Assembly (NCBI GenBank): GCA_034190185.1
Contig: JAXHTB010000002.1
Coordinates: 1-37,919 of the forward strand
Direction of reading: 5' to 3'
DNA from: Spirochaetota bacterium
GTDB taxonomy: Bacteria > Spirochaetota > UBA4802 > JAFGDQ01
DNA length: 37,919 nucleotides
Below are positions 9,822-36,684 of the stretch, one piece after another. Position numbers and translations under genes: made by a program. The notes under the pieces were generated by a model. That model was not told the origin of the DNA. It saw only the letters and a list, made by a program, of their open reading frames with translations, and searched no databases. The first letter of the stretch is position 1. Every line of letters begins with the position of its first letter.

Positions 9822-9830
9822 ATAATTAAG

Positions 9831-13953: not shown

Positions 13954-14051
13954 AGCATTAAATCTGTTACTGTACTCGCTATTGATCATCAAAAAACAAG
14001 AAGTATGACTAAAATTTATTGAATACGCAGAGTAGGGGGTAATCCCAAAGT

Positions 14052-14087: not shown

Positions 14088-14179
14088 TTGTTTACCCTAC
14101 AATTTAGACTATGCTCAAATTATCTAAGAGAAATATTTCTTAATTTTAAATAACATATAATTTCTTATAAAAGAAAAAA

Positions 14180-15274
14180 ATGAAACCAGATATATTTATT
14201 AACATTTTAAAAGATCACGATTTTGCCCATTTTATGGGGGTTCCATGCTCAGTATTTACAAATCTAATAAATTATCTTGAGGATTGTGAGGATATAAAAA
14301 ATTATACGGCATCCTCTGAGGGTGAAGCTATGGGATTGGCTGCTGGATTCTCATTATGCGGGAAAGTTCCTGTGATTTATATGCAAAATGATGGATATGG
14401 AAATATTATTAATCCATTATCATCCCTGCAACTTTTATATAAATTGCCTGCATTATTGCTGATATCTTGGCGCGGGGAACCAGGTAAAAAGGATGCTCCG
14501 CAACATACTGTAATGGGCAATACAATCTTGCAGCTTCTGGATATATTTAATATCCCAAAAATTATTCTTGATGAAGATCTTGAGAAAGTTAAACTATATA
14601 TAAGTGAAGTAAAACAGCATTTTAAACATAATAGAACTCCTTTTGCCTTTATTATAAAAAAGGGGTATTTTGAAAATTATGAAAAAAAATTATCCCCTTC
14701 ACCTATAAACCAACATTTCAGAATCGAATTTATCGATCTACTTTCAGATTATATTGATGAAAGGGATGTATTGCTTGGAGCTACAGGTTTCTCTGGACGA
14801 GAGCTTTACCAGAGTGTAAATCATAATGGAAAATTCTACATGATGGGTTCTATGGGGTGCTTGGCCAGTATTGGGATGGCAATTGCAGAGGAAAAAAGAG
14901 ATAGAAGAATATTTGTATTTGATGGTGATGGAGCAATTTTAATGAAAATGGGAACACTTGCCACAGTTGGATATTATAAGCCGAATAACCTGATTCATAT
15001 ATGCTTTGATAATGAAACATACGAATCAACTGGTGGTCAGAAAACGACATCTCAAACAGTCGATTACATAAAAGTTTCAAAAGCATGCGGCTACAGATCA
15101 GCAGTATATATTGAACGTATTGAAGAATTTAAAGAACTTTTAATAAATATTAAAGAATATGACAAACCGCTTTTCGTACAGATAAAAGTTAAACCAGGAA
15201 CCGTTGAGAACCTTACAAGACCCGCTGATTCTCCAGAAGATATGAAAAATAAAATTATGGAATTTTTAAAATAA
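14180..15274 (+). CDS. ppd: Phosphonopyruvate decarboxylase (ThDP-dependent)
   Basis: 364-aa single-chain Ppd-type layout. The ThDP motif is FVFDGDGAILMKMGTLATVG...ICFDNETYESTGGQ. The N-terminal PYR-domain shows GVPCS...EGEAMGLAAG. It lies immediately downstream of pepM. Confidence 0.9.
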   Translation: MKPDIFINILKDHDFAHFMGVPCSVFTNLINYLEDCEDIKNYTASSEGEAMGLAAGFSLCGKVPVIYMQNDGYGNIINPLSSLQLLYKLPALLLISWRGEPGKKDAPQHTVMGNTILQLLDIFNIPKIILDEDLEKVKLYISEVKQHFKHNRTPFAFIIKKGYFENYEKKLSPSPINQHFRIEFIDLLSDYIDERDVLLGATGFSGRELYQSVNHNGKFYMMGSMGCLASIGMAIAEEKRDRRIFVFDGDGAILMKMGTLATVGYYKPNNLIHICFDNETYESTGGQKTTSQTVDYIKVSKACGYRSAVYIERIEEFKELLINIKEYDKPLFVQIKVKPGTVENLTRPADSPEDMKNKIMEFLK

Positions 15275-16374
15275 TGTGGAAATATTCTAATCCTGTTAAG
15301 ATTATTTTTTCTGAACGTTTAACAGAAGGAATAATTCCGATTATTAGAGATAAAAATAAAATATTAATTATATGTTCTCAGCGGTTTACAAAAACAGAAG
15401 ATTACAATAATTTGACAAAGGGTCAAGATCGATATACTATTTTTATGGATATTGAAAATAATCCATCCTTTAGCAGTTGCCAAAAGGCAATAAACCATGT
15501 TAAAGACCTTAAACCTGATACAATCATAGCTATTGGCGGAGGATCGGTTTTAGATACTGCAAAAGCAGCAAGAATGGCATATTATAAATCATGCTATGAC
15601 ATTGAGAAATTATTCAATAATGAAAATATTCCTGTTACTAAACCTCTTTTTATTGCCATTCCTACAAATCACGGAACAAGCAGTGAACTTACTATGTGGG
15701 CAACTATATGGGATAAGAAAAATAATAAAAAGTATTCTTTATCTGAATTTGATAATTATCCTGATTACGCAATTTATGATGTTAATTTAATAAATTCTTT
15801 GCCAGTAGTAGAATCTTTAACCTCTGTCCTTGATGCTTTATCTCACTCTTTTGAGTCCTTGTGGAATAAAAATTCGAATCCAATCTCTGATCTTTTTGCA
15901 ATAGAAGCAATAAAATTGATTATTCAAAATATTTCCAAATTAAATAATCAGACGACAATAGATGTTAGGAAAAACCTTTTAACTGCATCGATCTATGCAG
16001 GCTTGGCGTTTTCCAATACTAAAACTGCCGCAGCTCACTCAATTAGTTATCCTTTGTCATTGTATTTCAATATCCCACATGGAATTGCATGTTCAATGCC
16101 TCTTTTCCCTCTGCTTAAAATAAATCAAAACACAATACAATACAAGATAGACAATTTGCTTAATATTTTGCGTCTTAATAATATTGAAGAATTATGGAGG
16201 GATGTTCTTAATTCAGTTATAAGTAAAATTCCTTTTACACTTCAAGAATTTGGAGTAAAAAAGAGCGATATTAACTGGCTCGTTGATATGTCTTTTACTA
16301 AAGATAGAATGGCTAACAATATAGTTAATTTAAATAAAAACGATGTCTATAATATATTAAAAGATATATATTAA
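15274..16374 (+). CDS. Iron-containing (group III) alcohol dehydrogenase, predicted phosphonoacetaldehyde reductase (PhpC/FomC/DhpG class)
   Basis: IIAIGGGSVLDTAKAA is the nucleotide loop. AAHSISYPLSLYFNIPHGIAC carries the metal-binding histidines. The ATG overlaps the ppd stop (TAATG), which implies translational coupling. Confidence 0.8.
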   Translation: MWKYSNPVKIIFSERLTEGIIPIIRDKNKILIICSQRFTKTEDYNNLTKGQDRYTIFMDIENNPSFSSCQKAINHVKDLKPDTIIAIGGGSVLDTAKAARMAYYKSCYDIEKLFNNENIPVTKPLFIAIPTNHGTSSELTMWATIWDKKNNKKYSLSEFDNYPDYAIYDVNLINSLPVVESLTSVLDALSHSFESLWNKNSNPISDLFAIEAIKLIIQNISKLNNQTTIDVRKNLLTASIYAGLAFSNTKTAAAHSISYPLSLYFNIPHGIACSMPLFPLLKINQNTIQYKIDNLLNILRLNNIEELWRDVLNSVISKIPFTLQEFGVKKSDINWLVDMSFTKDRMANNIVNLNKNDVYNILKDIY

Positions 16375-16483
16375 CCTTCACTCATAAGAAAATGCTTGAT
16401 CATTTCCTATTCTCCTGCAGATGATAATCTAATAGATATTTACCTTACATATCTATATAATTCATATAAAAAAAGGGAAGCAA

Positions 16484-17692
16484 ATGAATATTATTATCTT
16501 TGCATTAAATTTAAAGACTGAATTCAAATTATGGAACTTAACAACACTTGAAAGGCTGTTATTCACTTTGAATTCTGAAGAAAAAAGAGACATTACAATC
16601 ATATTAAATTCGTCATTTAATTTACCAAAAATAGTAGAGAAAAATAGGAATACAAAGATTACAATAAAACAAATTAATAGTATAAATGATGAAGAATTTT
16701 CTAAAGTGCTCGATCAAATTGATTCATCTGTGATTTTATTAAATGGAAATTACGTTTATGATCCTAGATGCCTTAGGAAAATTCTAAATTCAAAAACTGA
16801 TGTAATGTTGTACGATCCAAACAATGAAAATGCATTTGGAGTAAAATTATATCCTGATAATTTAAGATTATTGCAAAAGAACAAAATCAATGATTATAAT
16901 GATCTTTATAATTTTATAAAAGATAATACAAAGATAAAGCAATTATCAGTAAATGATATTCCTGCAAGAATCGATAGTATCAAAAAAGATATTGTCCCCT
17001 TTATTATCAGGTTGGAAAATAAACGAAATAATAAAAATGCAGAAAAAATCATATTTAATATGCAGTACAAGGGTGTTATGGATATTATATATATGTATCT
17101 TTACAGACCTGTTGTGGAAATATGCGTCAAATTCTTAAGTAAATTGGGAGTACATCCTAATTCAGTTAGTATAATAAATATATTTATTGGGATATTGGCT
17201 ATCCCCCTTTTCCTTACAGGGCATTTTTTATATGCACTGATCTTAACCCTGATTACAATGATTATGGATGCAATCGACGGACCTCTGGCAAGATTAACCT
17301 TTAAAACCAGCAAATTGGGACATTATCTTGATAAAATAACGCATATGGTACTTCATATTTCATGGCTCTTGTCAATCGGATTTGCATTAAGTCGACTTCA
17401 TGGAAACTATATCCCCATATTCATTTCATTGACAATAATTGCAATGTTTTTTATTTTTCGAGGAATTCGAAGTTCATTTAGACGAAAATTTCACAGAAGT
17501 ATTTATGATTTGTCCCGTTTCGATATTATTTTTAGAAGCATCTCCGGAAATAGATGGAATATAAATATGATTTTTTTATTTAGTGGAATAATAACAGGTG
17601 ATTTTCTTATGTCATTGTATATGATCACTATCTGGAATGGATTTTGTTTATTATTCTATGCAACGAGATTTATTTTTTATAAAGTAGGATAA
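16484..17692 (+). CDS. Membrane fusion protein: degenerate nucleotidyltransferase-like N-domain plus variant CDP-alcohol phosphotransferase domain (paralog 3)
   Basis: In DAIDGPLARLTFKTSKLGHYLDKITH (nt 17267-17344) the last Asp of the family motif is His. The N-domain shows LWNLTTLERLLFTL and LNGNYVYDPRCL. The stop overlaps the flippase ATG (TAATG). Confidence 0.8.
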   Translation: MNIIIFALNLKTEFKLWNLTTLERLLFTLNSEEKRDITIILNSSFNLPKIVEKNRNTKITIKQINSINDEEFSKVLDQIDSSVILLNGNYVYDPRCLRKILNSKTDVMLYDPNNENAFGVKLYPDNLRLLQKNKINDYNDLYNFIKDNTKIKQLSVNDIPARIDSIKKDIVPFIIRLENKRNNKNAEKIIFNMQYKGVMDIIYMYLYRPVVEICVKFLSKLGVHPNSVSIINIFIGILAIPLFLTGHFLYALILTLITMIMDAIDGPLARLTFKTSKLGHYLDKITHMVLHISWLLSIGFALSRLHGNYIPIFISLTIIAMFFIFRGIRSSFRRKFHRSIYDLSRFDIIFRSISGNRWNINMIFLFSGIITGDFLMSLYMITIWNGFCLLFYATRFIFYKVG

Positions 17693-19158
17693 TGGAAGAT
17701 AAGCCACAAACGACAAAAGAAATAAAACGCAAAGCTAAGAAGGGCTTCCTCCAATATGGATCTGCTAAGATTTTTTCAAAAATCTTGAATTCTGTAAGCT
17801 TTGTTATAGCTGCGGCATATATGAATACAGCAGAGATTGGTGTAGCTTCTTTGGTAAAGTCAATAATACTACTGATCCTTGCTCTTATTGAGTCTGGATT
17901 TCCTGATGCGCTTGTTCAATCAATTAGTCTTACTAAAAAACAGTCATCATCTTCTTTCTGGTTCTTAACATTTTGGGCACTATTCCTTTTTTTTATTATA
18001 GCTGTTGTCTCACCTTTAATTGAGCAATTCTTTAAAATGGATGGCCTGGCTGTTTTTATTCTTGGAGCATCTCTTCAACTCATATTTATTTCAATTGCAC
18101 TTGTTCCGGGACGTCATTTGGAGCGCAAATTGGATTTTGGTTATATTGGAATTATAGACACAATTGGCATAATAGGTTCCTCAATTACTAAAATTACACT
18201 GGCAGTACTGGGCGCAGGGGCATGGGCGCTTATTCTTGGCCCGGTGACAAATTCATTTATTAAGTGTATTATGACATTCTGGATAACACGCTATCTTCCA
18301 TCTCTTTATTTTTCATGGACATCTATAAAAGGACTTCTGAATTTTGGGTATAAAAGGGTAGTTTCTAATTTTATATATCGTTTCTATAAAAATGCGGATT
18401 ATTTAATTATTGGCATGTTCTTAGGCGAGACATTCTTAGGTGTTTATCGGGTTGCCTTTGAGTTATCTGTTGCGCCAGCATTGACTGTATCACACTTCTT
18501 TAATAAGGTTTCATTTTCTGCCTTTTCAAGACTTCAAAATTCAAGAGATAAGTTAAAATCATATTTCCTGGACATAAACCGTTCATTAGCAATGATTGTA
18601 GGCCCGATTTCTGTTTTCTTATTTGTAACTGCCGAAGACCTTCTTAGAATGTGTTTTGGTGAGAGGTATATTGACGCTACTATTGCTATAAAACTCCTAT
18701 GTATCATGGGATTTATTCGTTCTTTGAGTCAGCTTATCCCAAAGGTAATAAATGCTATCGGCAGGGCAGATATAACTCTATGGAACTCTATTATTACGCT
18801 GATTATATTAACCAGCGCCATTTTTACCGCTGTTGTAGGATGGAAAGATACCATGGGTATGATCCCAATTTGCCTGGCATGGCTTATAAGTTATCCTATT
18901 CTATGGCTAATTGTACTGATTATTGCTAAAATGCAGATTGATTTATCTTTCAAATCTTACTTTTGGAATTTGACGCCCTCACTTTTGGGATTAATTCTAA
19001 TGGGTTTATCTATGGAAGGCATGAAATATATAGGGAGAACAACAATACCGGCTGTAAATGTTGTTTTACCTACAGTTGTTGGACTAGGATTTTATCTTTT
19101 TTATATTACAAAAATCATGAAAGTTGATTTAATGAAAATTTTCCCAAAAAAAATGTGA
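17692..19158 (+). CDS. MOP-superfamily (Wzx-like) polysaccharide/lipid-linked-intermediate flippase
   Basis: 488 aa with about 12-14 hydrophobic helices. The N-terminal basic segment followed by G.L.YGSAKI.SKILN is typical of Polysacc_synt-type proteins. It is translationally coupled to paralog 3. Confidence 0.75.
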   Translation: MEDKPQTTKEIKRKAKKGFLQYGSAKIFSKILNSVSFVIAAAYMNTAEIGVASLVKSIILLILALIESGFPDALVQSISLTKKQSSSSFWFLTFWALFLFFIIAVVSPLIEQFFKMDGLAVFILGASLQLIFISIALVPGRHLERKLDFGYIGIIDTIGIIGSSITKITLAVLGAGAWALILGPVTNSFIKCIMTFWITRYLPSLYFSWTSIKGLLNFGYKRVVSNFIYRFYKNADYLIIGMFLGETFLGVYRVAFELSVAPALTVSHFFNKVSFSAFSRLQNSRDKLKSYFLDINRSLAMIVGPISVFLFVTAEDLLRMCFGERYIDATIAIKLLCIMGFIRSLSQLIPKVINAIGRADITLWNSIITLIILTSAIFTAVVGWKDTMGMIPICLAWLISYPILWLIVLIIAKMQIDLSFKSYFWNLTPSLLGLILMGLSMEGMKYIGRTTIPAVNVVLPTVVGLGFYLFYITKIMKVDLMKIFPKKM

Positions 19159-25107: not shown

Positions 25108-26379
25108 CTATATAAATATCTGAAACTGTAATATTGCATATTTACTGCCAGAACCCTTATTCTGATCACCTAATGAATGGGCAAATTCAAACTTAATATT
25201 TGCATTGTGACCATGAATGAAGTAATTAATACCGTAAATCATTTCAGAAATCTCTCTATCCTTTATTGCATTATTCTTAATTATTGCTCTTTCCTCGACC
25301 TTCTTGTAATATTTTACAACAGGCTGTACTTTGTTCCATAATAGAACTCCTGTTTGAAGAAGATATGCAGTCTGATTTATAAATCCACGATCATAAATCT
25401 CTTTATCATCTGAAGAAAATAAACGATAATCGCTTTTTGCAGGATTGTTCATAGAATCAACATAGGCTGCTTGAAAGGCAAGGATATAGTTGTTTAAGAA
25501 TCGATAATCAACTGTAAGATCAATGGTCCAAGCGAAATAGTCTTTCAATTTTTCATTATGTCTGCATACATCCTTCTGGAAATCGATGCCATAACCAATG
25601 GATATTATTTTTCTCATACCAAGATAGTTTCCGCTGTAGAAGAATCCTGTTTCCGGGTCTTCAAAATTAAACTGTAATCTGCCTGTATATCTGGGATAAT
25701 CATGTGGGTTTATTCTATATTCTTCAGTTGTACTATCTTCATTTATAACTTCAACATCTTTTCTGGTCTTACCCTGCCATATTCCGATCTTGTAGTCGAT
25801 GAAACCCTTCTTTCCTTGTGGACTATTGAAAAGGAGTCCTCTTATCTCAATTCCTGTATCCCTCCAGGCATTTGAGTATCCGTCAAGGGGAACTACAGCC
25901 GTGTTAATATCAACTCCCAGGGGGCTTGCCACTGACTGTCTGCTCTGATGCATGAATGGAAGGGGTATCATCCCAACATCTATCTGAAGTTCATCTGCAA
26001 TTTTATAGTTGATAAATGCACTCTGAGTAAAGATATGATTATTGGCTGACTCACTGTTCTCATAATATCCGTCACTATTTTTCCCTGCTTTTAGGTCATT
26101 TGTTTCCATGAAAAAACTAACATTCTCTGATACTTTTCCGTTTAAAATTATTCTTGATCTCCTTAGAAAGTAGCTTTTTTCATAAATGTTATCATCTGCT
26201 GATTCAGTTTCACCATTATATACATTGGCAAATTTTCCCTGTACCTGCAAGAGATAGTGCAATGAAATCCATTTATTATCTCCAAAAGTGAATCTTGAGA
26301 AATTGTTATCTTGTGCCATAATTGGCATTGCCAAATGTAATGATAACATTGCGCCAATAATAATGTAAATAATCCTCAT
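25108..26379 (-). CDS. Outer-membrane beta-barrel porin, OprO/P-like (start revised to the second ATG)
   Basis: The ATG at 26379 has AAGGAGG 8 nt upstream and yields a signal peptide MRIIYIIIGAMLSLHLAMPIMAQ. YFLRRSRIILNGK resembles the F.LRRARL.L.G block of phosphate-selective porins. Alternating beta-strand patterns continue to the C-terminus. The family assignment is from memory only. Confidence 0.6.
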   Translation of the reverse strand: MRIIYIIIGAMLSLHLAMPIMAQDNNFSRFTFGDNKWISLHYLLQVQGKFANVYNGETESADDNIYEKSYFLRRSRIILNGKVSENVSFFMETNDLKAGKNSDGYYENSESANNHIFTQSAFINYKIADELQIDVGMIPLPFMHQSRQSVASPLGVDINTAVVPLDGYSNAWRDTGIEIRGLLFNSPQGKKGFIDYKIGIWQGKTRKDVEVINEDSTTEEYRINPHDYPRYTGRLQFNFEDPETGFFYSGNYLGMRKIISIGYGIDFQKDVCRHNEKLKDYFAWTIDLTVDYRFLNNYILAFQAAYVDSMNNPAKSDYRLFSSDDKEIYDRGFINQTAYLLQTGVLLWNKVQPVVKYYKKVEERAIIKNNAIKDREISEMIYGINYFIHGHNANIKFEFAHSLGDQNKGSGSKYAILQFQIFI

Positions 26380-26512
26380 CTGTAAAGCCTCCTTATAATA
26401 TCTGGTTAAGATTATATATTTATTTCCCCACATTATTTGGATTATTCAGTGGAATATGAAAATATCAGGAAAGTAAATTAATAAGATAAAACAATAATAT
26501 TAATACTATTTA

Positions 26513-26709: not shown

Positions 26710-27333
26710 TTAATTTATACTTATTGTAATAAATTCATTACTCTTTGGATCATATAATGAACATAATCCGTCTTCAACAGCTCCAACTGTAATTATATAG
26801 ACCCTGTCTTTTTTAAGTGATATCCTTGCGCCTGGTTCTATTAAAAGCTCTTTTTGAGATTCATATTCTATCTCGATCATCGATGTCTTGTGTGAGTGTC
26901 CTCTGAATACTCTCCTGAAAGGCGGGTTTTTTACTGTCATTTTCGGCAGATACTCCGAAATTGGCTTATGTGTTGCAGCAGGCCAATTTAGAGGTAGCGA
27001 ATGCGTAAAACAGATATCTTCAAACTGAATTGTATATGGCAATTCCTTTAGAAAGGATATTGATGTATCTTTAAGACTCCTGGTTTGACTTGAAATTTGG
27101 TCAGTCATAATTATATATTCATTGTTGCCCATAATTGGCTTAACATTATACCTGTTGAGAATATATATAGAATCCTCAAGTGTTTCAGGCTTAAGTGAAT
27201 CACATATGTCGCCAAGATGGATTATATTTTTTGCGCCCATATCATATAGAATTTCTATTGCTTTTCGCATTTCTAAGTTCAGGCTGTGACTGTCTGAAAT
27301 CAGTCCTATTGAGCCGTTTATAATGTTGAGCAT
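26710..27333 (-). CDS. Calcineurin-like metallophosphoesterase
   Basis: IGLISDSH, IHLGDICD, GNNEY and RGHSH appear in the canonical order for the MPP fold. Confidence 0.85.
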   Translation of the reverse strand: MLNIINGSIGLISDSHSLNLEMRKAIEILYDMGAKNIIHLGDICDSLKPETLEDSIYILNRYNVKPIMGNNEYIIMTDQISSQTRSLKDTSISFLKELPYTIQFEDICFTHSLPLNWPAATHKPISEYLPKMTVKNPPFRRVFRGHSHKTSMIEIEYESQKELLIEPGARISLKKDRVYIITVGAVEDGLCSLYDPKSNEFITISIN

Positions 27334-27555
27334 TTAAAAGATCCTAATATCTACATGATTAAAAAGTAATTAAATTAATTATAAGATTATATGGTGATTT
27401 CCATTCTTATAGATAATATGTCAATAATTTTATGATATCTTTGTAGATATTTCTCATTGTGTAAGGATATTGTATTACATACCACAATATTTGTCAGTTC
27501 GTGCTAATAAAATTGGTATGCTCAAACTGTTTTCAGAAATTTAATAGTGTGTTTT

Positions 27556-27672
27556 TTAGCCACGGATTAACACGGATGGGACATTAATTTTTCCTATAGA
27601 ATTATTGTATTATTTATATACAGTCAAGCCGCATGAACAGTCCGTGACAATCTGTGTATATCAATGGCTAAT
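27556..27672. repeat. MITE/REP-like element bounded by imperfect ~24-nt terminal inverted repeats (TTAGCCAYKGATWWACACRGAT)
   Basis: The left arm is ttagccacggattaacacggat (27556-27577). The reverse complement of the right arm (about 27649-27672) reads ttagccattgatatacacagat, giving 17 of 24 matches including 7 of 7 at the tips. It has no coding capacity. Confidence 0.4.
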
Positions 27673-27796
27673 AATTTTAACAATCAAGTTTATACTGCAC
27701 TGACTGATTATCTACCATTATTCCTTCTGATATCAGATTGAACTTACTAAAATTCTATAATTTTACAATTTCAAATCCTATGAAGATAAATCCTTA

Positions 27797-27825
27797 TTGA
27801 CTTGTGATTTTTAATATTATATATA
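27797..27825 (+). promoter_or_regulatory. Candidate sigma70-type promoter (TTGACT-N17-TATATA) about 300 nt upstream of the dapF-like gene
   Basis: Hexamers and spacing were read directly. An AT-rich background makes chance matches likely. Confidence 0.3.
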
Positions 27826-28129
27826 AATTTAGGAATAACAGAAAGCTGCCTACTGTCGCAATTAAATTTGATAATGATTTATTCTCTAATGAATCTGAAC
27901 AACTTGATTTTAAAGGAAGCCAGGAGGCTGGAGTTTGTTAATAGTAAGGTGAAAGATTATTATATTGCTGAATGCAAATAACTATGCTGACCTCTACATT
28001 CTCCAGATAAGCTGGATGGACAGTGTTCCCTAAATCCTTTGTTGTTTAGTTGAAAGATAACATCTTAATAAAAACACAACAAAAAATAAGTTTTCATAGA
28101 GGAATTATAGACGATAACAGAAGGTATCT

Positions 28130-28963
28130 ATGAAATTTTACAAATATCACGCTATTGGCAATGACTATATTATTATTGATCCTAATGATGTTAAACAGTT
28201 AACTCCTGAAAAAATCATACAGATATGCCACCGTAATTATGGCATTGGATCTGATGGGATCTTATTTGGCCCGTTTTATAATCCTGTATCTGACTTCAGT
28301 GTAAAAATATATAATCCCGATGGAAGTGAGGCAGAAAAAAGTGGAAATGGTTTACGTATTTTTTCTAGATATCTCTACGATAGAAATCTTGTAAATAACA
28401 AGCCCTTTACGATTCATACTGAAGGAGGTATTGTAGAATCTAGGATTTTAGATGATGGATACATTGTTACTGTTGACATGGGTATAGTTAGCTTTGAAAG
28501 TACACTTATTCCTGTTATTGGCGCATCACGCGAAGTTATAAATGAAACAATGGAGATTGATGGACAGTTGCTTACATATTGTGCTGCCAGTATTGGAAAT
28601 CCGCATTGTGTAGTCCTTTGTGATGAGGTAAAAGAGGAGGAAGTGCGGAAGCTGGGTCCTATTATTGAGGTTGATGAGCGGTTTCCAAATAGAATAAATG
28701 TTCAGTTTATGAAAATAGTAGATGAGTTCAATATAATAATTAAGATATGGGAACGCGGAGCGGGCTATACATTAGCATCAGGAAGCAGCAGCAGCGCTGC
28801 TGCTGCTGTAGCCTATAAATTGGGATTATGTAGATCTAAGATTGCAGTACATATGCCCGGGGGCACAATAGATATTGAAATATCTGAAGATTTTTCAATT
28901 ATTATGAGCGGACCTGTTACAAAAGTCGCAGAAGGTATGATATCCGAAGATATCTTTAAATAA
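28130..28963 (+). CDS. Diaminopimelate-epimerase-fold protein (DapF-like) lacking both catalytic cysteines
   Basis: Family resemblance is strong throughout (MKFYKYHAIGNDYIIID, GSDGILF, YNPDGSEAEKSGNGLR, SIGNPHCVV, INVQFM, IWERGAGYTLASGSSSSAAA, VHMPGG). The two positions that are Cys in canonical DapF read Ser (codons agt and tca). Confidence 0.85.
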   Translation: MKFYKYHAIGNDYIIIDPNDVKQLTPEKIIQICHRNYGIGSDGILFGPFYNPVSDFSVKIYNPDGSEAEKSGNGLRIFSRYLYDRNLVNNKPFTIHTEGGIVESRILDDGYIVTVDMGIVSFESTLIPVIGASREVINETMEIDGQLLTYCAASIGNPHCVVLCDEVKEEEVRKLGPIIEVDERFPNRINVQFMKIVDEFNIIIKIWERGAGYTLASGSSSSAAAAVAYKLGLCRSKIAVHMPGGTIDIEISEDFSIIMSGPVTKVAEGMISEDIFK

Positions 28964-28984
28964 TATTAAGATTATACCATAGAG

Positions 28985-29014
28985 CTGTTTTGGCGGAAGA
29001 CAAAACAGGTTTTC
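28985..29014 (+). terminator. Probable intrinsic terminator after the dapF-like gene
   Basis: The stem is ctgttttg / caaaacag (8 bp) with loop gcggaaga, followed by gttttc. Confidence 0.5.
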
Positions 29015-29115
29015 ATAGAGAAATTATAAACTAATGATAATTTTTCTATTTTTGCATGTCAATTATTTAACTGTAATAGTTACAATGATGTATTAAAACA
29101 AATAGTGGATATTAT

Positions 29116-32100
29116 ATGAATAATTTTACAGAAGGGAATAAAAGACGATCCCTATGCGGAATATGTTCAGCAGGCTGCTGGGTTGTTGTAAATTATGACA
29201 ATGATGGTAAGATCGGTGAAATTGAGATAGATTCAAGCTCTCCACTTGGAAGGATTTGCAGAATAGGCCAGCTTTCAAAGGAAATTGTTTACTCAAAAGA
29301 CAGGCTTCTTCATCCTATGCGCAGAAAGGGATTAAAAGGGAACTATGAATTTGAACAGATAACTTGGGATGATGCTTATAATATTATTGTTGATAATCTT
29401 AATAAAGTTAAGAGGGAATTTGGCCCAGAGGCTGCTGCCATATATACAGGAAGTGGAAGTTTTGAACTTTCTCTTTGCGACATCTATCAACCTAAGGGTG
29501 TTGCTGTTTCTTCAGCTTCTAGTGTCCTATTCCCTTTTGGTTCTCCAAATACACTTGGAGTAGGTGCGTTATGTTATGTCGCTTTCGCTATGATTGCTCC
29601 TCATGTAACCATGGGCGGAATGTATATAAATATGTTTTCTGACATAGAGAATGCCAGCATGATCCTTATTTGGGGAAAGAATCCAGCAGCGCATTGTCCA
29701 CCAGATGATTTTATAAAGATAGAAGAGGTTCATAAAAGAGGAGCGAAGATTGTTGTAATAGATCCCCGTAGAACTGTTATGGCAAAATATAAGAATGCTG
29801 AGTGGATCCCTATTAGGCCTGGCACTGATGGGGCCTTGGCGTTAGGGATGTGTAATATAATTATTGAAGAAGAGTTGTATGATGATAATTTCGTTAATAA
29901 CTGGACCATAGGTTTTAATGATTTTGCTAGTTATGTCCAGCATTTTAGGGCAGAATATGTTGAGAGCATTACAGGCGTACCTGCTAAGACTATTAGATCA
30001 CTTGCTCGAAGAATAGCGGAAAGTTACGGTGTTGCTCCTGTTATGTACAGTGGACTTGAATACAGCGATGGCGCTGTTCAGGCTATTCGTGCTGTATTTG
30101 TACTTTTAGCCCTTGCTGGACAGCTTGATGTGCCTGGAGGATACTGTTTTAGTATGTCTAAGAATAAGTTCCCAATAAACCGTGAGGGACATATCCCAAA
30201 TCCTGATGTAAAAAAGGCTGCTGGATATAATAATTTTCCTATTTATACTAAATATAGAGGAGAATTTCATGCTAATATTCTTCCCAGAGCTGTTTTGGAA
30301 GGGAAACCATATCCTATACGTCTACTGATAAGCCTTGGCGCTTCTATAATTACATCATGGCCGCAATCAGGAATATGGCGAAAAACTTTGGAAGCTCTAG
30401 ATTTCCTTGTCTGTATCGATCGTCAGCTTATTGCTGATGCCGCTTATGCTGATATTATTTTACCTTCAACAACCTATTATGAGATAGAATCTTATATGGT
30501 GTATGAATCTATCTTCAGGATAAGAGAAAAGGTAATTGAACCTGTTGGGGAGGCTAAAAATGATTTTTTTATTCTCTCTGAACTTGCTAATCGTTTAGGG
30601 TATGGTAATCTATATCCACAAAATGAGGATGAGCTGCTTACTCATGTATTGAAGAATAGCGGTTTTACCCTTGACCAAGTCCGAAAGGCTGGAGGTATAG
30701 CACAGATCCCCACAGTAATGATGCAATATAAGAAATGGGAAAAGGGATTGCTTAGAGAAGATGGAAAACCTGGATTCGACACACCTTCAGGAAAGTTTGA
30801 GATTGCCTCAAGTATTCTTGAAGAGCATGGTTATGATGCATTGCCGATTTATACAGAGCCAGGTGAGGGGCCTCTTTCTCAGCCTGATCTAGCAAAGGAA
30901 TATCCGCTTATTTTTAATTCTGGAGCTCGCTCTAATATCGATCTTCATACACTTCACCATACTATTCCTAAGCTGTCAAAAGAAAAGCCAGTGCCCACAG
31001 TTATGCTTAATACTAAAGATGCAGAAAAACGCGGAATTGAGAACGGCGATTATGTTCATATAAAAACTAAAAGGGGCGCTGTTAGTATGTATGCCTATGT
31101 AACTGATGATATTGTACAAGGGGCGGTTGAAGCAAGCGGGGCAGGTGGAGGCGCACTGGGGCCAAAGTCATGGAGGGAGGCAAATATAAATGAATTGACT
31201 GATCTAAAACGTTATGATCCAATATCTGGATTCCCTGTATATAAAGCTCTGTTGTGTGATGTTGTAAAGATTTCAAAAGGCGATCAAGCAAAGATAACCG
31301 GAACTGGAGAGTATTCTTTGAATGATGCTGTTGATAAGGATACAGATACTTGTGGAATATATCTTGATCATAATGCTACCTCACCTATTGATACTGAAGT
31401 AAAGGAAATAATGATACAATCATTAGAACTTTTCGGAAATCCATCAAGTATCTATTCTAATGGTGTTAAAACTAAGCAAGTTGTTGAAGATGCCAGAAGG
31501 AGTCTTTCTTTACTGATAAACAGCACAGCGCGCCGAATAACTTTCACTAGCGGGGGATCAGAAGCAAACAATACTGCAATTAAAGGTGTTGCTTTTGCAA
31601 ATTTCGGTTTTAAAGATCATATAATAACATCGAATATTGAACACCCGTCTATAATCAATACCTGTAAGTGGTTGGAGAAAAAACGATTTAAAGTAACTTA
31701 TCTTAATGTAGATTCCGATGGAAGAGTAAATCCATCTGAGCTAAGTAATGCAATTACTGATAAAACATGCCTTATTAGTATCATGCTGGCCAATAATGAG
31801 ATTGGCACTATTCAGCCGATTAGAGAGTTAACAGAGATAGCAAGAAACAGTGGGGTTTTATTTCATACTGATGCAGTTCAAGCAGTAGGTAAGATAGAAA
31901 TTGATGTTGAGGACCTTGGAGTGGATTTGTTGACCATGTCTGCTCACAAATTTAATGGGCCTAAGGGTATTGGAGCTCTTTATATCAGAAAAGGTGTTGC
32001 AATTGATCCGCTTATTAATGGAGGTAGCCAGGAAAATGGGATGCGCGCAGGAACTGAAAATGTACCTTGTATTGCTGGAATGGGAAAGGCTGCTGAACAG

Positions 32101-32505
32101 TCCTTATATAATTTACAAAAAGTTGATCAAATCAAAGGAATTCGAGACAGACTGGAACAGGGCATAAAAGATCAGATTCCCAATGCAAAGTTAAATGGAC
32201 ATAGGGATGAAAGGCTGCCTAATACAATTAATATAACATTACCTGGTTTGCGGGGGGAGTCAATGGTTTATGCGCTCGATAGGAAGGGAGTGTCTGTGTC
32301 ATCAGGCTCTGCATGCCGGTCTGGCAAGCCTGAACCTTCCTATACTCTTACAGCTTTAGGATTATCAGAAGAGGATGCTCATTGTTCATTACGTTTTTCC
32401 CTTGGATTTGAGAATACAATAGAAGAAATTGATCGGACTATCTCTATCATTGCAGAGGTTGTTAAAGATCAAAAATCAATGGTTCGTTTTGTGTCTTGTC
32501 GATAG
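29116..32505 (+). CDS. Fusion of a bis-MGD (Mo/W-pterin) oxidoreductase module to a NifS/IscS-type cysteine desulfurase; architecture of the metallopterin-dependent ergothioneine synthase (MES)
   Basis: One uninterrupted 1129-codon ORF. The N-terminal [4Fe-4S] motif is C14-x2-C17-x3-C21...C48. Molybdopterin-enzyme blocks are present (ILIWGKNPAA, KIVVIDPRRT, IRPGTDGALALGM, DFLVCIDRQL..ADIILPSTTYYE, GDYVHIKTKRGAV). A linker of about 30 aa spans nt 31261-31350. The class-V PLP domain shows IYLDHNATSP, FTSGGSEANN, SAHKFNGPKG (Lys945, nt 31948-31950) and SSGSACRSG (Cys1067, nt 32314-32316). Confidence 0.85.
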   Translation: MNNFTEGNKRRSLCGICSAGCWVVVNYDNDGKIGEIEIDSSSPLGRICRIGQLSKEIVYSKDRLLHPMRRKGLKGNYEFEQITWDDAYNIIVDNLNKVKREFGPEAAAIYTGSGSFELSLCDIYQPKGVAVSSASSVLFPFGSPNTLGVGALCYVAFAMIAPHVTMGGMYINMFSDIENASMILIWGKNPAAHCPPDDFIKIEEVHKRGAKIVVIDPRRTVMAKYKNAEWIPIRPGTDGALALGMCNIIIEEELYDDNFVNNWTIGFNDFASYVQHFRAEYVESITGVPAKTIRSLARRIAESYGVAPVMYSGLEYSDGAVQAIRAVFVLLALAGQLDVPGGYCFSMSKNKFPINREGHIPNPDVKKAAGYNNFPIYTKYRGEFHANILPRAVLEGKPYPIRLLISLGASIITSWPQSGIWRKTLEALDFLVCIDRQLIADAAYADIILPSTTYYEIESYMVYESIFRIREKVIEPVGEAKNDFFILSELANRLGYGNLYPQNEDELLTHVLKNSGFTLDQVRKAGGIAQIPTVMMQYKKWEKGLLREDGKPGFDTPSGKFEIASSILEEHGYDALPIYTEPGEGPLSQPDLAKEYPLIFNSGARSNIDLHTLHHTIPKLSKEKPVPTVMLNTKDAEKRGIENGDYVHIKTKRGAVSMYAYVTDDIVQGAVEASGAGGGALGPKSWREANINELTDLKRYDPISGFPVYKALLCDVVKISKGDQAKITGTGEYSLNDAVDKDTDTCGIYLDHNATSPIDTEVKEIMIQSLELFGNPSSIYSNGVKTKQVVEDARRSLSLLINSTARRITFTSGGSEANNTAIKGVAFANFGFKDHIITSNIEHPSIINTCKWLEKKRFKVTYLNVDSDGRVNPSELSNAITDKTCLISIMLANNEIGTIQPIRELTEIARNSGVLFHTDAVQAVGKIEIDVEDLGVDLLTMSAHKFNGPKGIGALYIRKGVAIDPLINGGSQENGMRAGTENVPCIAGMGKAAEQSLYNLQKVDQIKGIRDRLEQGIKDQIPNAKLNGHRDERLPNTINITLPGLRGESMVYALDRKGVSVSSGSACRSGKPEPSYTLTALGLSEEDAHCSLRFSLGFENTIEEIDRTISIIAEVVKDQKSMVRFVSCR

Positions 32506-32618
32506 GATGTGTATTATATAATTTTCAAGATTGCGTTATTATCGAAGCAATAGTATATAGATAATATTAATATAAAGATAATAAATAAAAAGATATATTT
32601 AACACAATAGGATAAATA

Positions 32619-33617
32619 ATGACATTAGATTATAGAGTTTTGCAGAAAACCGATTATCAGCTATCTGATAGTCATCATGATTTTGCTCTGAATGTGCTTT
32701 TAGGACTTTCACAATATCCGAAATCTGTACCTTCAAGATATCTTTATGATGCTGAAGGAGATAAGCTCTTTCAACAGATCATGAATCTCCCAGAGTACTA
32801 TCTGACCCAGTGTGAATTCGAAATATTGCAGAATCATAAAGATCAAATTATTGATCTGGTTTTCGAAGATCAGACAAACTTGATCGAATTAGGAGCAGGT
32901 GATGGGCAGAAAACAGAAATTCTGCTTGAGCACCTTATTAATATCGATCTGAATTTTGAGTACGTTCCTATTGATATATCAGAATCATCGATTAAAGGAC
33001 TTGTTAGCGGACTTAAAAAATCTTATCCAGAAATGAAGATTGAAGGATTAGTTGCTGAATACTTTGAGGGATTGAAATGGCTTTCATGTGATAATCAGGG
33101 ACACAATGTTGTACTTTTTCTTGGCTCAAGTATTGGGAATTTTAGTCATTCTGAGGCTAGAGTCTTTTTGTTTAGTCTATGGAATGCTCTAAATGATGGA
33201 GATATCATTTTAATCGGTTTTGATCTTAAAAAAGATATTCAAACTTTGACAAAAGCTTATAACGATTCTCAGGGAATCACAGCGCGTTTTAACCTGAATT
33301 TGTTGAATAGAATTAATAAAGAGTTAGGTGGCAATTTCGATCCTGATTGCTTCCAATATCATAATACATATAATGTTTTCACAGGTGCAATGGAAAGTTA
33401 TCTTGTAAGTTGCGAAGAGCAGAATGTATATATTAAGGAACTTAATCAGTTCTTCTCATTTGAATCGTGGGAATCTCTGCATACAGAGTATTCTCATAAG
33501 TATCTGTTGTCTGAAATATCTGCATTAGCAGAGGAGACAGGTTTTAATATAATTCATCAATTCTCTGATTCCAGGCAATATTACATAGATTCTCTTTGGC
33601 AGGTTGTAAAAAGATAG
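32619..33617 (+). CDS. egtD: EgtD/EanA-type SAM-dependent histidine N-alpha-methyltransferase (hercynine synthase family)
   Basis: YLYDAEGDKLFQQIMNLPEYYLTQCEFEIL, LIELGAGDGQKT, YVPIDIS, LFLGSSIGNF, GFDLKKD, AYNDSQGITARFNLNLLNRINKELG and HTEYSHKY follow the EgtD family block order. Confidence 0.85.
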   Translation: MTLDYRVLQKTDYQLSDSHHDFALNVLLGLSQYPKSVPSRYLYDAEGDKLFQQIMNLPEYYLTQCEFEILQNHKDQIIDLVFEDQTNLIELGAGDGQKTEILLEHLINIDLNFEYVPIDISESSIKGLVSGLKKSYPEMKIEGLVAEYFEGLKWLSCDNQGHNVVLFLGSSIGNFSHSEARVFLFSLWNALNDGDIILIGFDLKKDIQTLTKAYNDSQGITARFNLNLLNRINKELGGNFDPDCFQYHNTYNVFTGAMESYLVSCEEQNVYIKELNQFFSFESWESLHTEYSHKYLLSEISALAEETGFNIIHQFSDSRQYYIDSLWQVVKR

Positions 33618-33874
33618 GTATATAATTATATGCTCCCTTTTTTATTGGATTATACCCTTTGCCATTTAACCCAGGTTCTCCTCTACTACTTATCAATGTC
33701 CTATCAACATTATTCTAAGTGTTGTCAGATCCAGTTTATTTATATGCTCTACAAGTAGTTCTGAATTTAACTAAAGTAAAACTCTTTAAAACCTCATCCG
33801 TAAAATATTTCAAAAAACCTGTTACCGTATAATGACTTGGAATTGTTTCTCATTGAAAGGAGAAAAAGGGAGGT

Positions 33875-34231
33875 CTACAGTAATTTAACAAGCGCGGCTA
33901 TAAGCGCTGCTTGGGCAATGAGCATACCCGCAACCCAGCGGACAGTATTAGCCTTTGATTCGGCAATATCTTTTTTGAGTTCGATTCGCAGTATTTCAAT
34001 ATCCTTTTTGAGTTCAGTTCGGAGTGACTCGATATCCTTTTTTAGCTCAGAGCGGACTGATTCAATATATTTAGTTAGATTGCTTTCAGTTGCTCTCAAG
34101 TCGTTCTTATTGGCAAGATTTTCTTCAACTGTTTCACGAAAGACCTCAGCAATCTCTTTTGCAGTTTCTTCACTGAGACCAGAGGCTTTAAGGCGACTGT
34201 ATATGTTCAATGTATCGATAGAAACTGGCAT
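33875..34231 (-). CDS. DUF1640-like coiled-coil protein with a C-terminal TM anchor
   Basis: MPVSIDTLNIYSRLKASGLSEETAKEIAEVF...NDLRATESNL is followed by a coiled coil and a C-terminal hydrophobic helix WVAGMLIAQAALIAALVKLL. The overlapping + strand ORF 33837-34238 is its mirror image. Confidence 0.7.
   Translation of the reverse strand: MPVSIDTLNIYSRLKASGLSEETAKEIAEVFRETVEENLANKNDLRATESNLTKYIESVRSELKKDIESLRTELKKDIEILRIELKKDIAESKANTVRWVAGMLIAQAALIAALVKLL
33962..34060 (-). repeat. Three in-frame tandem 33-nt (11-aa) repeats inside the DUF1640-like gene
   Basis: The units are SVRSELKKDIE / SLRTELKKDIE / ILRIELKKDIA. Confidence 0.8.
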
Positions 34232-34754
34232 TGGATGAATCCTTTTGAATTTAATATAGAATTGCTTATCTCCTTCTTTAGTTATTGTGAAGGAGGATAT
34301 GAAAAAATAAATTTAGCGCCCTTCAGGCGGGCTTACAAGAGGTGGAACAAAGATGATAAGGAGATTTATTAAATTAACCATTCATGAATTATTTTGGCGC
34401 TAAATGAATTCGATTTTGAAAAATCACTTCAGTATAATTTTTCAAAATTCTGATGCGCTAAGATAATGAGATAATAATAAATATTTCCATCTTCCTTTCT
34501 CTATTATCCCCCTTCTCTCCTTTTCTTACATATTTTTTATCTTAAAATTGTAGAAAATTGAAATAATGCAAATTCCTATACTATTAAGTTAAAAATTATT
34601 ATGTTTATGTTTATTTGTCAATCATTTTATCAGGGATATAATATTATGAAAAGGGGATAGTAGTAAATTAATTTGGAATATTTAAAAAAAATGATTGCAA
34701 TAAATTCTGCTATTATGGTAACGTCACTGATTTTTATTATTATATGAGGTTCAG

Positions 34755-34925
34755 ATGTTATCGATAGAAAGCTTAGAAAAATCACTTTTAGAAAAAGAGA
34801 TTCAAGCTCAAATTGCCAGTTATAAAGGAGATCATGTTGAGTATCTTTGTCTGGAGAGTGAAATATCAGCTATCAAGAATTTATTAATACAAAAAATTTC
34901 GAAGAACAACAAGGTTGTTAATTAA
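34755..34925 (+). CDS. Possible 56-aa hypothetical protein (below the ORF-track cut-off)
   Basis: GAGG lies 6 nt upstream of the ATG. The product is MLSIESLEKSLLEKEIQAQIASYKGDHVEYLCLESEISAIKNLLIQKISKNNKVVN. No recognisable family. Confidence 0.25.
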   Translation: MLSIESLEKSLLEKEIQAQIASYKGDHVEYLCLESEISAIKNLLIQKISKNNKVVN

Positions 34926-35100
34926 ATGTGTATAAATAAAATATAACTTAATAAAATATTTGTTGTTTTCAATAGTAATTTAACAATAAAGATTATTTGA
35001 TAAAAATTTTCAAAAATGCTAATTATTTTAAAATTTTACTTGACCTATAACAGGCAGTTTATATTATCGGTCAAATTAGTAAGAATTGAGCAGGAGTTTT

Positions 35101-35361
35101 ATGAAGAGATTAGCAAATAATAGCATTATTCAGGTTTTACTCTTTCTTATCGCTGTTCATGTTTCGGATCTATATTCACATACTTCAAAAGAAATCAGTT
35201 TGAAAAATCAAAAAGATGAAATAACAATATATAGTCCAGGAACAGAACTTGAGAGCGATAAAAGTGTATTTGCCAGGTCTTACGATTGTACAGATAATGA
35301 TAATTCTAATTCTCAGTTAAAATTTAGAGCAATAGTTAGAAATGGTAATATATCCTTATAG
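35101..35361 (+). CDS. Small hypothetical secreted protein (start moved to the ATG at 35101)
   Basis: AGGAG lies 5 nt upstream of the ATG at 35101. It has a signal-peptide-like MKRLANNSIIQVLLFLIAVHVSDLYS. The 3' end overlaps the glnA stop convergently by 6 nt. Confidence 0.4.
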   Translation: MKRLANNSIIQVLLFLIAVHVSDLYSHTSKEISLKNQKDEITIYSPGTELESDKSVFARSYDCTDNDNSNSQLKFRAIVRNGNISL

Positions 35362-36684
35362 GATCGGCAGATATTTATCCAGTTCATATTGACTTACTTG
35401 AGTTCTGTAATCATCCCATTCAATTTTTTTATTAGCAATAAATTTTTCAAAGATATGATCACCAAGAGCCTCACGTACTAGAGAGCTTTTTTCTGTTTCT
35501 GCAATCGCTTCACCAAGATTTGCCGGAAGTGACGTGATACCTCGGTTTAAGCGGGTTTCTGGAGTCATTTCAAAGATATTTTCTTCAATAGGATCAGGCA
35601 GCTTGTATTTTTCCTCTATCCCCTTTAGTCCTGCAGCAAGCATAACAGAAAAGGCAAGATATGGATTGCAGGCTGGATCAGGGCAACGAAATTCTATCCT
35701 AGTCGCTATCTCTTTACCAGGTTTATATGTAGGCACCCGCACCAGGGTTGAACGATTTCTTTGCGCCCATGAAATATATACTGGAGCTTCATAACCAGGT
35801 ACAAGTCTCTTGTAGGAATTTACCCATTGTGCTACAATAAGACATATCTCGCGCGCATGTTTCAGTAACCCTGCAATATAAGCCTTCCCAATTTCAGATA
35901 GATGATATTTATCATTCTTATCAAAAAAAGCATTTTCTTCTCCTTTGAAAAGAGACTGATGAGTGTGCATTCCGCAGCCATTCTGGCCGAATAGAGGTTT
36001 TGGCATAAAGGTTGCATAAAGCCCATGTTTTAATGCTATCTCCTTGACAGTTAAACGATAGGTCATTGCAGCATCAGCCATTGAAAGACCATCCATATAT
36101 CTAAGATCAATCTCATGCTGGCTTGGGGCAATCTCATGATGGCTATACTCTACACCTATACCCATGCTCTCAAGTGAGAGTATTGTATCCCTTCTAAGAT
36201 CACTTGCTACATCAAGTGGAGTAAGGTCAAAATAACCCCCATCATCAATTGTTTCTGGATAACCTTTTGAGCTTTTAAAATAGAAAAACTCAAGTTCAGG
36301 ACCAACATAAAAAATATATCCATGATCAGCAGCTTTTTGCAGATTCCTTTTAAGAGCGAAGCGTGGATCGCCATAGTATGGGGTGCCATCCGGATTCATA
36401 ATATTACAAAATAATCTCGCTACATTTATATCATCCTTGTATCGCCAGGGAAGAATGGTAAAGGTATTTATATCTGGCATAGCGATCATATCGCTCTCAT
36501 GTATCCTTGCATACCCCTCAATAGATGAGCCATCAAAACCGATACCATCAATTAGAGCATCTTCTAATTCATCAGATGTAATAGCAAAACTCTTTAAGAA
36601 TCCTAAAACATCTGTAAACCACATACGTATAAATTTTACATTCTGATCTCTTGCTGTTTTAAGAATATATTCAGTATCGATCAT
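35356..36684 (-). CDS. glnA: Glutamine synthetase type I (GSI-alpha-like, no adenylylation motif seen)
   Basis: 442 aa with VKFIRMWFTDVLG, FDGSSIEGY, GPELEFF, HHEIAPSQHEIDL, KPLFGQNGCGMHTHQSL and NRSTLVRVP. The region corresponding to the adenylylation Tyr loop reads ENIFEMTPE. Confidence 0.95.
   Translation of the reverse strand: MIDTEYILKTARDQNVKFIRMWFTDVLGFLKSFAITSDELEDALIDGIGFDGSSIEGYARIHESDMIAMPDINTFTILPWRYKDDINVARLFCNIMNPDGTPYYGDPRFALKRNLQKAADHGYIFYVGPELEFFYFKSSKGYPETIDDGGYFDLTPLDVASDLRRDTILSLESMGIGVEYSHHEIAPSQHEIDLRYMDGLSMADAAMTYRLTVKEIALKHGLYATFMPKPLFGQNGCGMHTHQSLFKGEENAFFDKNDKYHLSEIGKAYIAGLLKHAREICLIVAQWVNSYKRLVPGYEAPVYISWAQRNRSTLVRVPTYKPGKEIATRIEFRCPDPACNPYLAFSVMLAAGLKGIEEKYKLPDPIEENIFEMTPETRLNRGITSLPANLGEAIAETEKSSLVREALGDHIFEKFIANKKIEWDDYRTQVSQYELDKYLPIL

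Follow-up and report, generated by a model that had tools for sequence, protein, structure and literature searches.

Two adjacent genes in the window, the 37,919-nucleotide stretch of Spirochaetota DNA analysed here, very probably constitute a two-gene, oxygen-independent pathway to the antioxidant ergothioneine that depends on a Mo/W cofactor, as judged from sequence comparison. The first encodes a metallopterin-dependent ergothioneine synthase (MES) and the second a histidine methyltransferase, EgtD; they are described here through the structure of the genes, the domains and conserved residues of their products, orthology and synteny. The point of reference is the experimentally characterised MES of Caldithrix abyssi, CaMES (Beliaeva and Seebeck, 2022; PMC9516567), a study that the earlier sequence-only reading of this DNA had cited and whose content matches the account given there. 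To represent CaMES (UniProt A0A7V4WV16) we used the 1136-aa product of locus L055 in a C. abyssi MAG, after checking that its N- and C-termini match the sequence printed in the supplement of the paper (PMC9516567). The window MES (1129 aa) is an ortholog of CaMES with 63.3% identity end to end, and all nine functional residues are present: C14, C17, C21, C48, and C153 keep their numbering, and K952, C1074, C1097, and C1135 correspond to K945, C1067, C1090, and C1128. Together with an EgtD score above the family cutoff and the synteny described below, this similarity supports the metallopterin-dependent route that had been proposed from the letters alone. The locus is an ordinary and clear member of the MES family, and the route itself was already described in 2022.

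Both genes lie on the forward strand. The MES gene (29116..32505) is the continuous 1129-codon ORF first noted, with an ATG start and neither N bases nor internal stops, and egtD (32619..33617; 332 aa) does begin 113 nt further downstream, after an AT-rich spacer (32506..32618). This spacer contains a 17-nt tandem repeat (32554-32599) and a GGA ribosome-binding-like motif ahead of the egtD ATG. A search of positions 27300-35400 for terminator-like sites found a single hairpin, at 28985..29008, past the stop of dapF (28963) and ahead of where MES starts (29116), as a consensus match only and by a search in which shuffled sequences gave more sites than the real one; it probably marks the upstream limit of a transcription unit made up of MES and egtD. 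The same search found no terminator-like site in the spacer, and MES and egtD are, therefore, probably co-transcribed. GC3 is 0.27 in MES and 0.28 in egtD, matching the 0.27 of dapF and glnA, which makes the pair compositionally native. Chance origin is of no concern for a 1129-codon ORF in DNA of 34% G+C with very low domain E-values. In the 38-kb window, no genes for Moco biosynthesis or for molybdate or tungstate transport and no Moco riboswitch were found.

The N-terminal module of MES (residues 1-716; 29116..31263) is of the bis-MGD (Mo/W) type, with Pfam matches to Molybdopterin (PF00384, residues 63-493, 1.7e-43) and Molydop_binding (PF01568, residues 605-711, 9.5e-18). Among solved structures, its top match is the tungsten enzyme acetylene hydratase (2e7z, 9e-76, residues 10-658), in agreement with the relationship cited earlier for the N-module of CaMES. 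The [4Fe-4S] motif first read as CxxCxxxC...C resolves to C14-x2-C17-x3-C21-x26-C48 (29155-29259), and Cys153 (29572-29574), proposed as a metal ligand within GALCYVA, is found at that position and aligns with the tungsten-ligand Cys of acetylene hydratase. These five cysteines are kept in 81 of 81 aligned sequences. Because the first Cys already stands at residue 14, there is no Tat signal. The term oxidoreductase, used in the sequence-only reading, is no more than a family label; no external redox partner takes part in the Mo(VI)=S / Mo(IV) cycle that has been proposed.

The module at the C-terminus (residues 747-1129; 31354..32502) is a class-V PLP cysteine desulfurase, matching Aminotran_5 (PF00266) at residues 748-1107 (1.7e-77) and desulfurase structures with E-values down to 8e-101. 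It is, as first described, a complete NifS/IscS-type domain, with the PLP Lys945 (31948-31950) in SAHKFNG and the persulfide Cys1067 (32314-32316) in GSACRSG. The residues named in that description are all correct, and its list omitted two: Cys1090 (32383-32385) and the penultimate relay residue Cys1128 (32497-32499), in a protein that ends ...FVSCR. Conservation across the 81 aligned sequences is near complete at K945 (80), C1067 (79), C1090 (78), and C1128 (77), the exceptions being alignment gaps apart from one Ser at 1090. In CaMES, the C153S, K952A, C1074S, and C1135S substitutions each abolish ergothioneine production and C1097S merely halves it; the penultimate Cys is essential for sulfur relay, and the isolated C-module is an active desulfurase (PMC9516567). 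Assignment of MES as a housekeeping NifS or IscS was rejected, as it scores 479.8 against an equivalog cutoff of 530.75 for the former and 386.3 against 643.2 for the latter and is fused rather than a stand-alone protein of ~400 aa. The only NifS/IscS-type model that it passes is the loose subfamily model NF002806 (329 vs 304), which is why the name "IscS subfamily cysteine desulfurase" is given to the entire protein in public annotation; the databases thus mislabel the MES family as plain cysteine desulfurases.

A genome scan identifies up to 523 species-representative genome stretches that encode a relative, all from anaerobe-type lineages, and the best 80 of these relatives are all near full-length. 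The family is no longer as rare as it was in 2022, and its earlier description as rare was overstated. Among the best 80 loci, egtD adjoins MES in 64, and in 44 of these it lies downstream on the same strand, as in the window. In another seven of the 80, egtD is out of reach despite room for it, and in one MAG with two MES paralogues (L001 and L002) only L002 adjoins egtD; the subclade of the window MES includes the egtD-less L001. Such loci lend some substance to the idea that the fusion is another sulfur-handling bis-MGD enzyme, whether similar to polysulfide or thiosulfate reductases or acting on a different heterocycle, in which the desulfurase would only mature or sulfurate the cofactor and egtD would be a coincidental neighbour. 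The N-module also matches models for formate dehydrogenase and for PhsA, a thiosulfate reductase, and the CaMES study offers the speculation that enzymes related to it might act on other heterocycles as sulfur acceptors (PMC9516567). However, the PhsA, formate dehydrogenase, and DMSO-reductase models all score far under their cutoffs (280 vs 694 for PhsA), and the desulfurase of CaMES is required for turnover, not maturation (PMC9516567). With every catalytic residue of a validated enzyme retained and egtD adjacent in most loci, a function of this other kind is quite unlikely.

The downstream gene is assigned as egtD. Its product matches Methyltransf_33 (PF10017, 2.6e-101) and EgtD crystal structures (3e-49) and passes the NCBIfam EgtD equivalog TIGR03438 (317.5 bits vs a cutoff of 290.9). 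Ten of the 12 histidine-binding residues of Mycobacterium smegmatis EgtD are identical: Y39, F47, Y56, G161, N166, Y206, T213, F216, E282, and S284. The two changes relative to the crystallised enzyme are T163S and M252S. As changes at Met252 and Glu282 can reportedly retarget EgtD to tryptophan (Vit et al. 2015), a methyltransferase with Ser252 and Ser163 might conceivably make another betaine, and the final product might then be something other than ergothioneine; use of selenocysteine, leading to selenoneine, would have the same consequence, and selenocysteine lyase models and structures do match the NifS-like module. Several observations make a different product very improbable. The carboxylate ligands Tyr56, Tyr206, and Ser284 are kept, as are Asn166 and Glu282, which have been singled out as important for histidine binding at the EgtD active site (PMC8593015). 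Ser252 is present in 79 of 80 close relatives, and the two substitutions are fixed across a large clade of EgtDs adjoining EgtB genes; members of this clade from a Chlorobiales MAG and from Algoriphagus stand directly beside EgtB-type sulfoxide synthases in canonical ergothioneine clusters. The window, in addition, contains no selenium-metabolism genes that our search could find. The 332-aa protein is an EgtD, predicted to make trimethylhistidine (TMH, hercynine), the substrate of MES. There is a small chance that MES also accepts selenocysteine, which would open an anaerobic route to selenoneine, or that its subclade, with L001, sulfurises a further heterocycle.

The two modules of MES are joined by a weakly conserved linker (residues 717-746; 31264..31353), of the ~30 aa first estimated. 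Across the junction (31261-31350) the in-frame translation is VVKISKGDQAKITGTGEYSLNDAVDKDTDT, with no stops, and the single 1129-aa polypeptide combines a bis-MGD module (PF00384 and PF01568) with a class-V cysteine desulfurase (PF00266). Mean column conservation is 0.34 in the linker vs 0.57-0.88 in the remaining protein, and identity to CaMES is 23% there, as compared with 67% in the N-module and 60% in the C-module. An AF2 model is of too low quality for judging domain geometry. The poor conservation of the linker is what might suggest that a molybdoenzyme gene and a nifS/iscS gene were joined artificially by a sequencing or assembly error, a prospect rendered practically negligible by 77 of the 80 best loci, from independent assemblies, that carry the equivalent fusion as one complete ORF (median 1136 aa), by >100 database proteins of 1096-1198 aa with the same fusion, and by the fused nature of the published enzymes, with intramolecular sulfur transfer obligatory in CaMES (PMC9516567).

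In the ergothioneine pathway favoured here, EgtD would use SAM to trimethylate the alpha-amino group of L-histidine, and MES would then install sulfur at C2 of the TMH imidazole ring. The PLP module, via Lys945, would convert L-cysteine to alanine and load a persulfide onto Cys1067, from which the sulfane sulfur would pass to the penultimate Cys1128 on a flexible C-terminal tail. Cys1128 would in turn deliver it to the bis-MGD cofactor's Mo or W centre, presumably held by Cys153 in the N-module of the same polypeptide. Attack of the TMH imidazole on the M(VI)=S sulfido would allow ergothioneine to leave, and the reduced M(IV) centre would be re-sulfurised. The sulfur relay, intramolecular transfer, and catalytic cycle derive from the study of CaMES, whose authors regard the cycle as tentative; supplying CaMES and an EgtD is enough for E. 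coli to produce ergothioneine (PMC9516567). By analogy, we infer that the window MES follows the same relay and cycle.

The closest known system is CaMES itself, which shares with the window MES the two-module architecture, the cluster cysteines, the Cys153 ligand, the PLP Lys, the persulfide Cys, the Cys1097 equivalent, the penultimate relay Cys, and the co-encoded EgtD homologue. The window protein differs in its divergent linker, which is seven residues shorter, in a host far lower in G+C, and in a partner EgtD of the Ser252 clade, whereas most MES-adjacent EgtDs are of the Met252 type. Acetylene hydratase resembles the N-module in its CxxCxxxC...C cluster motif, its Cys ligand, which falls at the corresponding place in the alignment, and its lack of a Tat signal. 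Its Asp13, which we take to be catalytic, lies beside the second cluster Cys, whereas the aligned residue in the window MES is Ser18, and this position is Pro, Ser, or Ala in the 81 sequences, never Asp; MES is related to acetylene hydratase but outside its family. The hydratase also lacks a desulfurase module and carries out C-O rather than C-S chemistry. The housekeeping NifS/IscS desulfurases (such as 4eb5, 1p3w, and 5wt2) share the class-V PLP fold, PLP Lys, and persulfide-loop Cys with MES, in which, by contrast, the desulfurase sits behind a 716-aa molybdoenzyme and has an extra C-terminal ...CR relay tail.

The O2-dependent sulfoxide synthases EgtB/Egt1 and the rhodanese-like sulfurtransferase EanB likewise take TMH from an EgtD-family enzyme and yield ergothioneine, but they have unrelated folds and chemistry, and MES requires no O2. 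The Ser252-type clade to which the window EgtD belongs is otherwise found beside EgtB-type genes. The systems for Moco sulfuration (the ABA3 Moco sulfurase, XdhC, and, for formate dehydrogenase, IscS/FdhD), discussed in the CaMES paper (PMC9516567), resemble MES in that a molybdenum cofactor receives its sulfur from a cysteine desulfurase. They sulfurate the cofactor once, as a maturation step that precedes its insertion, whereas for MES the proposal is that sulfuration takes place in cis and is repeated with each catalytic cycle.

An open reading frame (ORF) of 1129 aa with an ATG start occupies 29116-32505 on the forward strand, followed after a 113-nt spacer by a 332-aa ORF at 32619-33617 (+), egtD. 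The junction between the two modules of the larger product, 31261-31350, reads in frame as VVKISKGDQAKITGTGEYSLNDAVDKDTDT in the window sequence, without stops or ambiguous bases, and Pfam assigns Molybdopterin (PF00384) to residues 63-493, Molydop_binding (PF01568) to residues 605-711, and Aminotran_5 (PF00266) to residues 748-1107. ORF, junction, and domains thus bear out the continuous fusion and adjoining methyltransferase ORF proposed in the sequence-only reading. The residues singled out there also lie where it placed them: the cysteines of C14-x2-C17-x3-C21-x26-C48, Cys153 in GALCYVA, Lys945 in SAHKFNG, and Cys1067 in GSACRSG. With the first cluster cysteine at residue 14, a Tat signal peptide would not fit, and the protein should be cytoplasmic. 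An AlphaFold2 model of the full-length protein, built on a shallow alignment of 12 sequences, was unusable (mean pLDDT 47.7, pTM 0.39).

The fusion protein is an orthologue of CaMES, Caldithrix abyssi's metallopterin-dependent ergothioneine synthase (MES), and the paper cited for that enzyme in the sequence-only reading exists, with the content given there (Beliaeva & Seebeck 2022, PMC9516567). A C. abyssi MAG in the genome scan (L055) encodes a 1136-aa ORF whose N- and C-termini match the CaMES sequence in the supplement of that paper. Overall identity of the window MES to it is 63.3% (N-module 67%, linker 23%, C-module 60%), and each of the nine residues identified in CaMES has its counterpart, with residue numbers past the linker shifted by 7 throughout. 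In CaMES, Cys14/17/21/48 are the [4Fe-4S] cluster cysteines, Cys153 is the Mo/W ligand, Lys952 is the PLP lysine, Cys1074 is the persulfide site, and Cys1135 is the penultimate residue; C153S, K952A, and the mutants of Cys1074 and Cys1135 are inactive, and mutation of the conserved Cys1097 lowers activity only two-fold (PMC9516567). The window equivalents past the linker are K945, C1067, C1090, and C1128, the protein ending in ...FVSCR. Neither C1090 nor C1128 had been mentioned in the sequence-only reading, and Cys1128, as an essential relay residue, strengthens the MES assignment. When the window protein is aligned with the 80 best genome loci, C14, C17, C21, C48, and C153 are kept in 81/81 sequences, K945 in 80, C1067 in 79, C1090 in 78, and C1128 in 77; the exceptions at the last four positions are alignment gaps, save for one Ser at 1090.

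Among solved structures, the N-module best matches the tungsten enzyme acetylene hydratase (2e7z; 9e-76, residues 10-658), with thiosulfate reductase and formate dehydrogenases ranking behind. Cys153 aligns with a cysteine of 2e7z that, allowing for a chain numbering offset of +3, we take to be the tungsten ligand Cys141. In acetylene hydratase, however, an Asp adjoins the second cluster cysteine, whereas the window MES has Ser18 at this position, which is occupied by Pro, Ser, or Ala in each of the 81 MES sequences and by Asp in none. With this Asp absent, the N-module is kin to acetylene hydratase, not a member of that family, and 63% identity to CaMES, set against an E-value-level match to the hydratase, makes placement within MES unambiguous. 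The C-module aligns with NifS/IscS structures (E-values down to 8e-101) but stays under the equivalog cutoffs of both NifS and IscS; it passes only a loose 'IscS subfamily' model, which explains the label that NCBI and JGI attach to the whole 1129-aa family. In these databases, full-length homologues (P0002-P0120; genome loci L001-L080) are labelled 'IscS subfamily cysteine desulfurase', 'cysteine desulfurase NifS', or 'aminotransferase class V-fold'.

The downstream gene product is a Methyltransf_33 protein (PF10017, 2.6e-101 in Pfam) that scores above the EgtD equivalog cutoff of NCBIfam (317.5 bits versus 290.9) and aligns over its whole length with crystallised EgtD (3e-49). Ten of 12 substrate-pocket positions are the same as in Mycobacterium smegmatis EgtD, including Asn166, Glu282, Tyr56, Tyr206, and Ser284; Thr163 and Met252 are each replaced by Ser. 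The roles of the pocket residues are drawn in part from published work (PMC8593015). Position 252 is said to influence specificity; a literature search for M252V found no text. Ser252 was considered as a sign of altered specificity and rejected, since it is fixed in 79/80 genomes with the closest relatives of the window EgtD (43-65% identity), some of which adjoin EgtB-type synthases. Directly upstream of the Ser252 EgtD, both a Chlorobiales MAG and Algoriphagus antarcticus encode a DinB_2 plus FGE-sulfatase protein, an EgtB-type sulfoxide synthase. As a clade trait found beside EgtB-type neighbours, Ser252 places the window EgtD in a standard ergothioneine-pathway clade.

Across the wider EgtD family, a Met252 type and a Ser252/Asn163 type can be distinguished (loci L161-L239), and Ser-type EgtD partners EgtB-like genes in Bacteroidota and a Chlorobiales MAG (L164, 4665-6942; L190, 4822-6936). 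MES-linked EgtDs are of the Met252 type in 46/56 cases. On a neighbour-joining tree of MES, which carries no support values, Ser-type partners occur in several places, and the subclade of the window MES (L001, L002, L007, and L010) is all Ser-type where a partner is present. The presence of both types shows that MES genes have paired with no fewer than two EgtD lineages, the Ser-type having been recruited several times.

An EgtD homologue adjoins MES in 64 of the 80 loci. In 44 of these the two genes share a strand with egtD downstream, as in the window; in 18 they share a strand with egtD upstream; and in 2 egtD is upstream and on the opposite strand. Of the other 16 loci, 9 end at a contig edge within 1.2 kb, and 7 are truly without a nearby egtD. 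MES copies lacking egtD within about 4-6 kb include L001 (6001-9390), L035, L038, L064, L070, and L076; L001 is a paralogue of the egtD-linked L002 in the same Thermodesulfobacteriota MAG, neighbours a second molybdopterin oxidoreductase ORF, a DUF364 protein, an aldehyde dehydrogenase, and a Zn-ADH, and could have a different substrate. In the window, a terminator-like hairpin lies between dapF and MES (28985-29008; consensus match only). Consensus matching found no such site in the AT-rich MES-egtD spacer, which fits co-transcription of the two genes. The spacer also holds an AT-rich 17-nt tandem repeat (32554-32599; 2.9 copies, consensus TATAAAGATAATATTAA) that may serve as a regulatory site or be no more than low-complexity AT-rich DNA. 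Recent horizontal transfer of the pair is rejected on composition, since GC3 (0.27 for MES, 0.28 for EgtD) matches that of dapF and glnA (0.27) and marks the pair as compositionally native.

The closest relatives of MES (75%) and EgtD (65%) are both Thermodesulfobacteriota MAG proteins; those of GlnA are from Spirochaetes/Leptospirales MAGs (79%), then mixed phyla. The window contains no Moco biosynthesis or Mo/W transport genes, and an Rfam scan of its whole length at the gathering threshold found no riboswitch, hence no Moco or SAM riboswitch, including upstream of MES. Elsewhere, a phosphonate-type biosynthetic cluster (8568-19158) comprises a cytidylyltransferase-PEP phosphomutase fusion (12664-13953), a TPP-dependent phosphonopyruvate-decarboxylase-like gene (14180-15274), and an Fe-alcohol dehydrogenase (15274-16374); three CDP-alcohol phosphatidyltransferase-family genes, a PLD-like gene, and a polysaccharide flippase flank these. 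The cluster's product is probably a phosphonate-decorated lipid or glycan. Two ORFs on opposite strands overlap almost completely at 33837-34238, and the one on the minus strand (33875-34231, 118 aa) is probably the real gene, given its match to a CCDC90/DUF1640-like coiled-coil family and its 33-nt tandem repeat (33964-34049). A 1043-aa methyl-accepting chemotaxis protein (2244-5375, -) has three PAS and four HAMP_2 domains, and a Cys/His-rich motif repeated in its PAS units suggests a metal- or redox-sensing input. Composition steps from about 38-43% G+C at 1-7000 (MCP, MBL-fold, and CheR genes) to mostly 27-36% at 7000-37919; the stretch at ~1000-2000 has 28% G+C and no convincing ORF, and a 441-aa ORF at 25108-26433 (-) has no Pfam match.

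To our knowledge, only two enzyme types are known for O2-free ergothioneine biosynthesis. A search of the literature library used here found no follow-up primary work on MES. The enzyme rests on a single primary study, in which full-length CaMES resisted purification and 55 co-encoding genomes were counted in 2022 (PMC9516567). The family is now larger: 523 species-representative stretches in the genome scan encode a relative, and the databases contain over 100 full-length proteins with 67-76% identity to the window MES. The best 80 loci, all near full-length, come from Thermodesulfobacteriota, Dehalococcoidia, anammox Planctomycetota, Nitrospirota, Zixibacteria, Calditrichota, Ignavibacteria-group MAGs, Spirochaetia, and several archaea. 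Because these proteins are systematically mis- or under-annotated as IscS/NifS cysteine desulfurases, ergothioneine capacity is hidden and under-called in anaerobes such as sulfate reducers, Dehalococcoidia, anammox bacteria, and some archaea. With one primary study, in which the full-length enzyme could not be purified, each well-supported homologue is a structural and mechanistic candidate for the study of a C-S bond-forming molybdo/tungsto-enzyme. The window locus extends the existing picture, alters nothing in it, and would not surprise a specialist; it is of use as a correctly re-annotated example and as a further candidate for the full-length enzyme preparation that is still missing.

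In CaMES, the isolated C-module is an active cysteine desulfurase, turnover requires desulfurase activity, Cys1074, and Cys1135, and sulfur transfer is obligatorily intramolecular (PMC9516567). Sulfurisation of trimethylhistidine (hercynine) at the metallopterin is reversible, CaMES together with an EgtD is enough for ergothioneine production in E. coli, whether the metal is Mo or W, and the authors tentatively propose an M(VI)=S / M(IV) cycle (PMC9516567). The E. coli strain used there was a delta-mtn one; BL21 performs poorly. By analogy, we infer that the window MES acts as CaMES does, in which case its metallopterin cofactor would receive new sulfur in cis in each catalytic round, as is proposed for MES.
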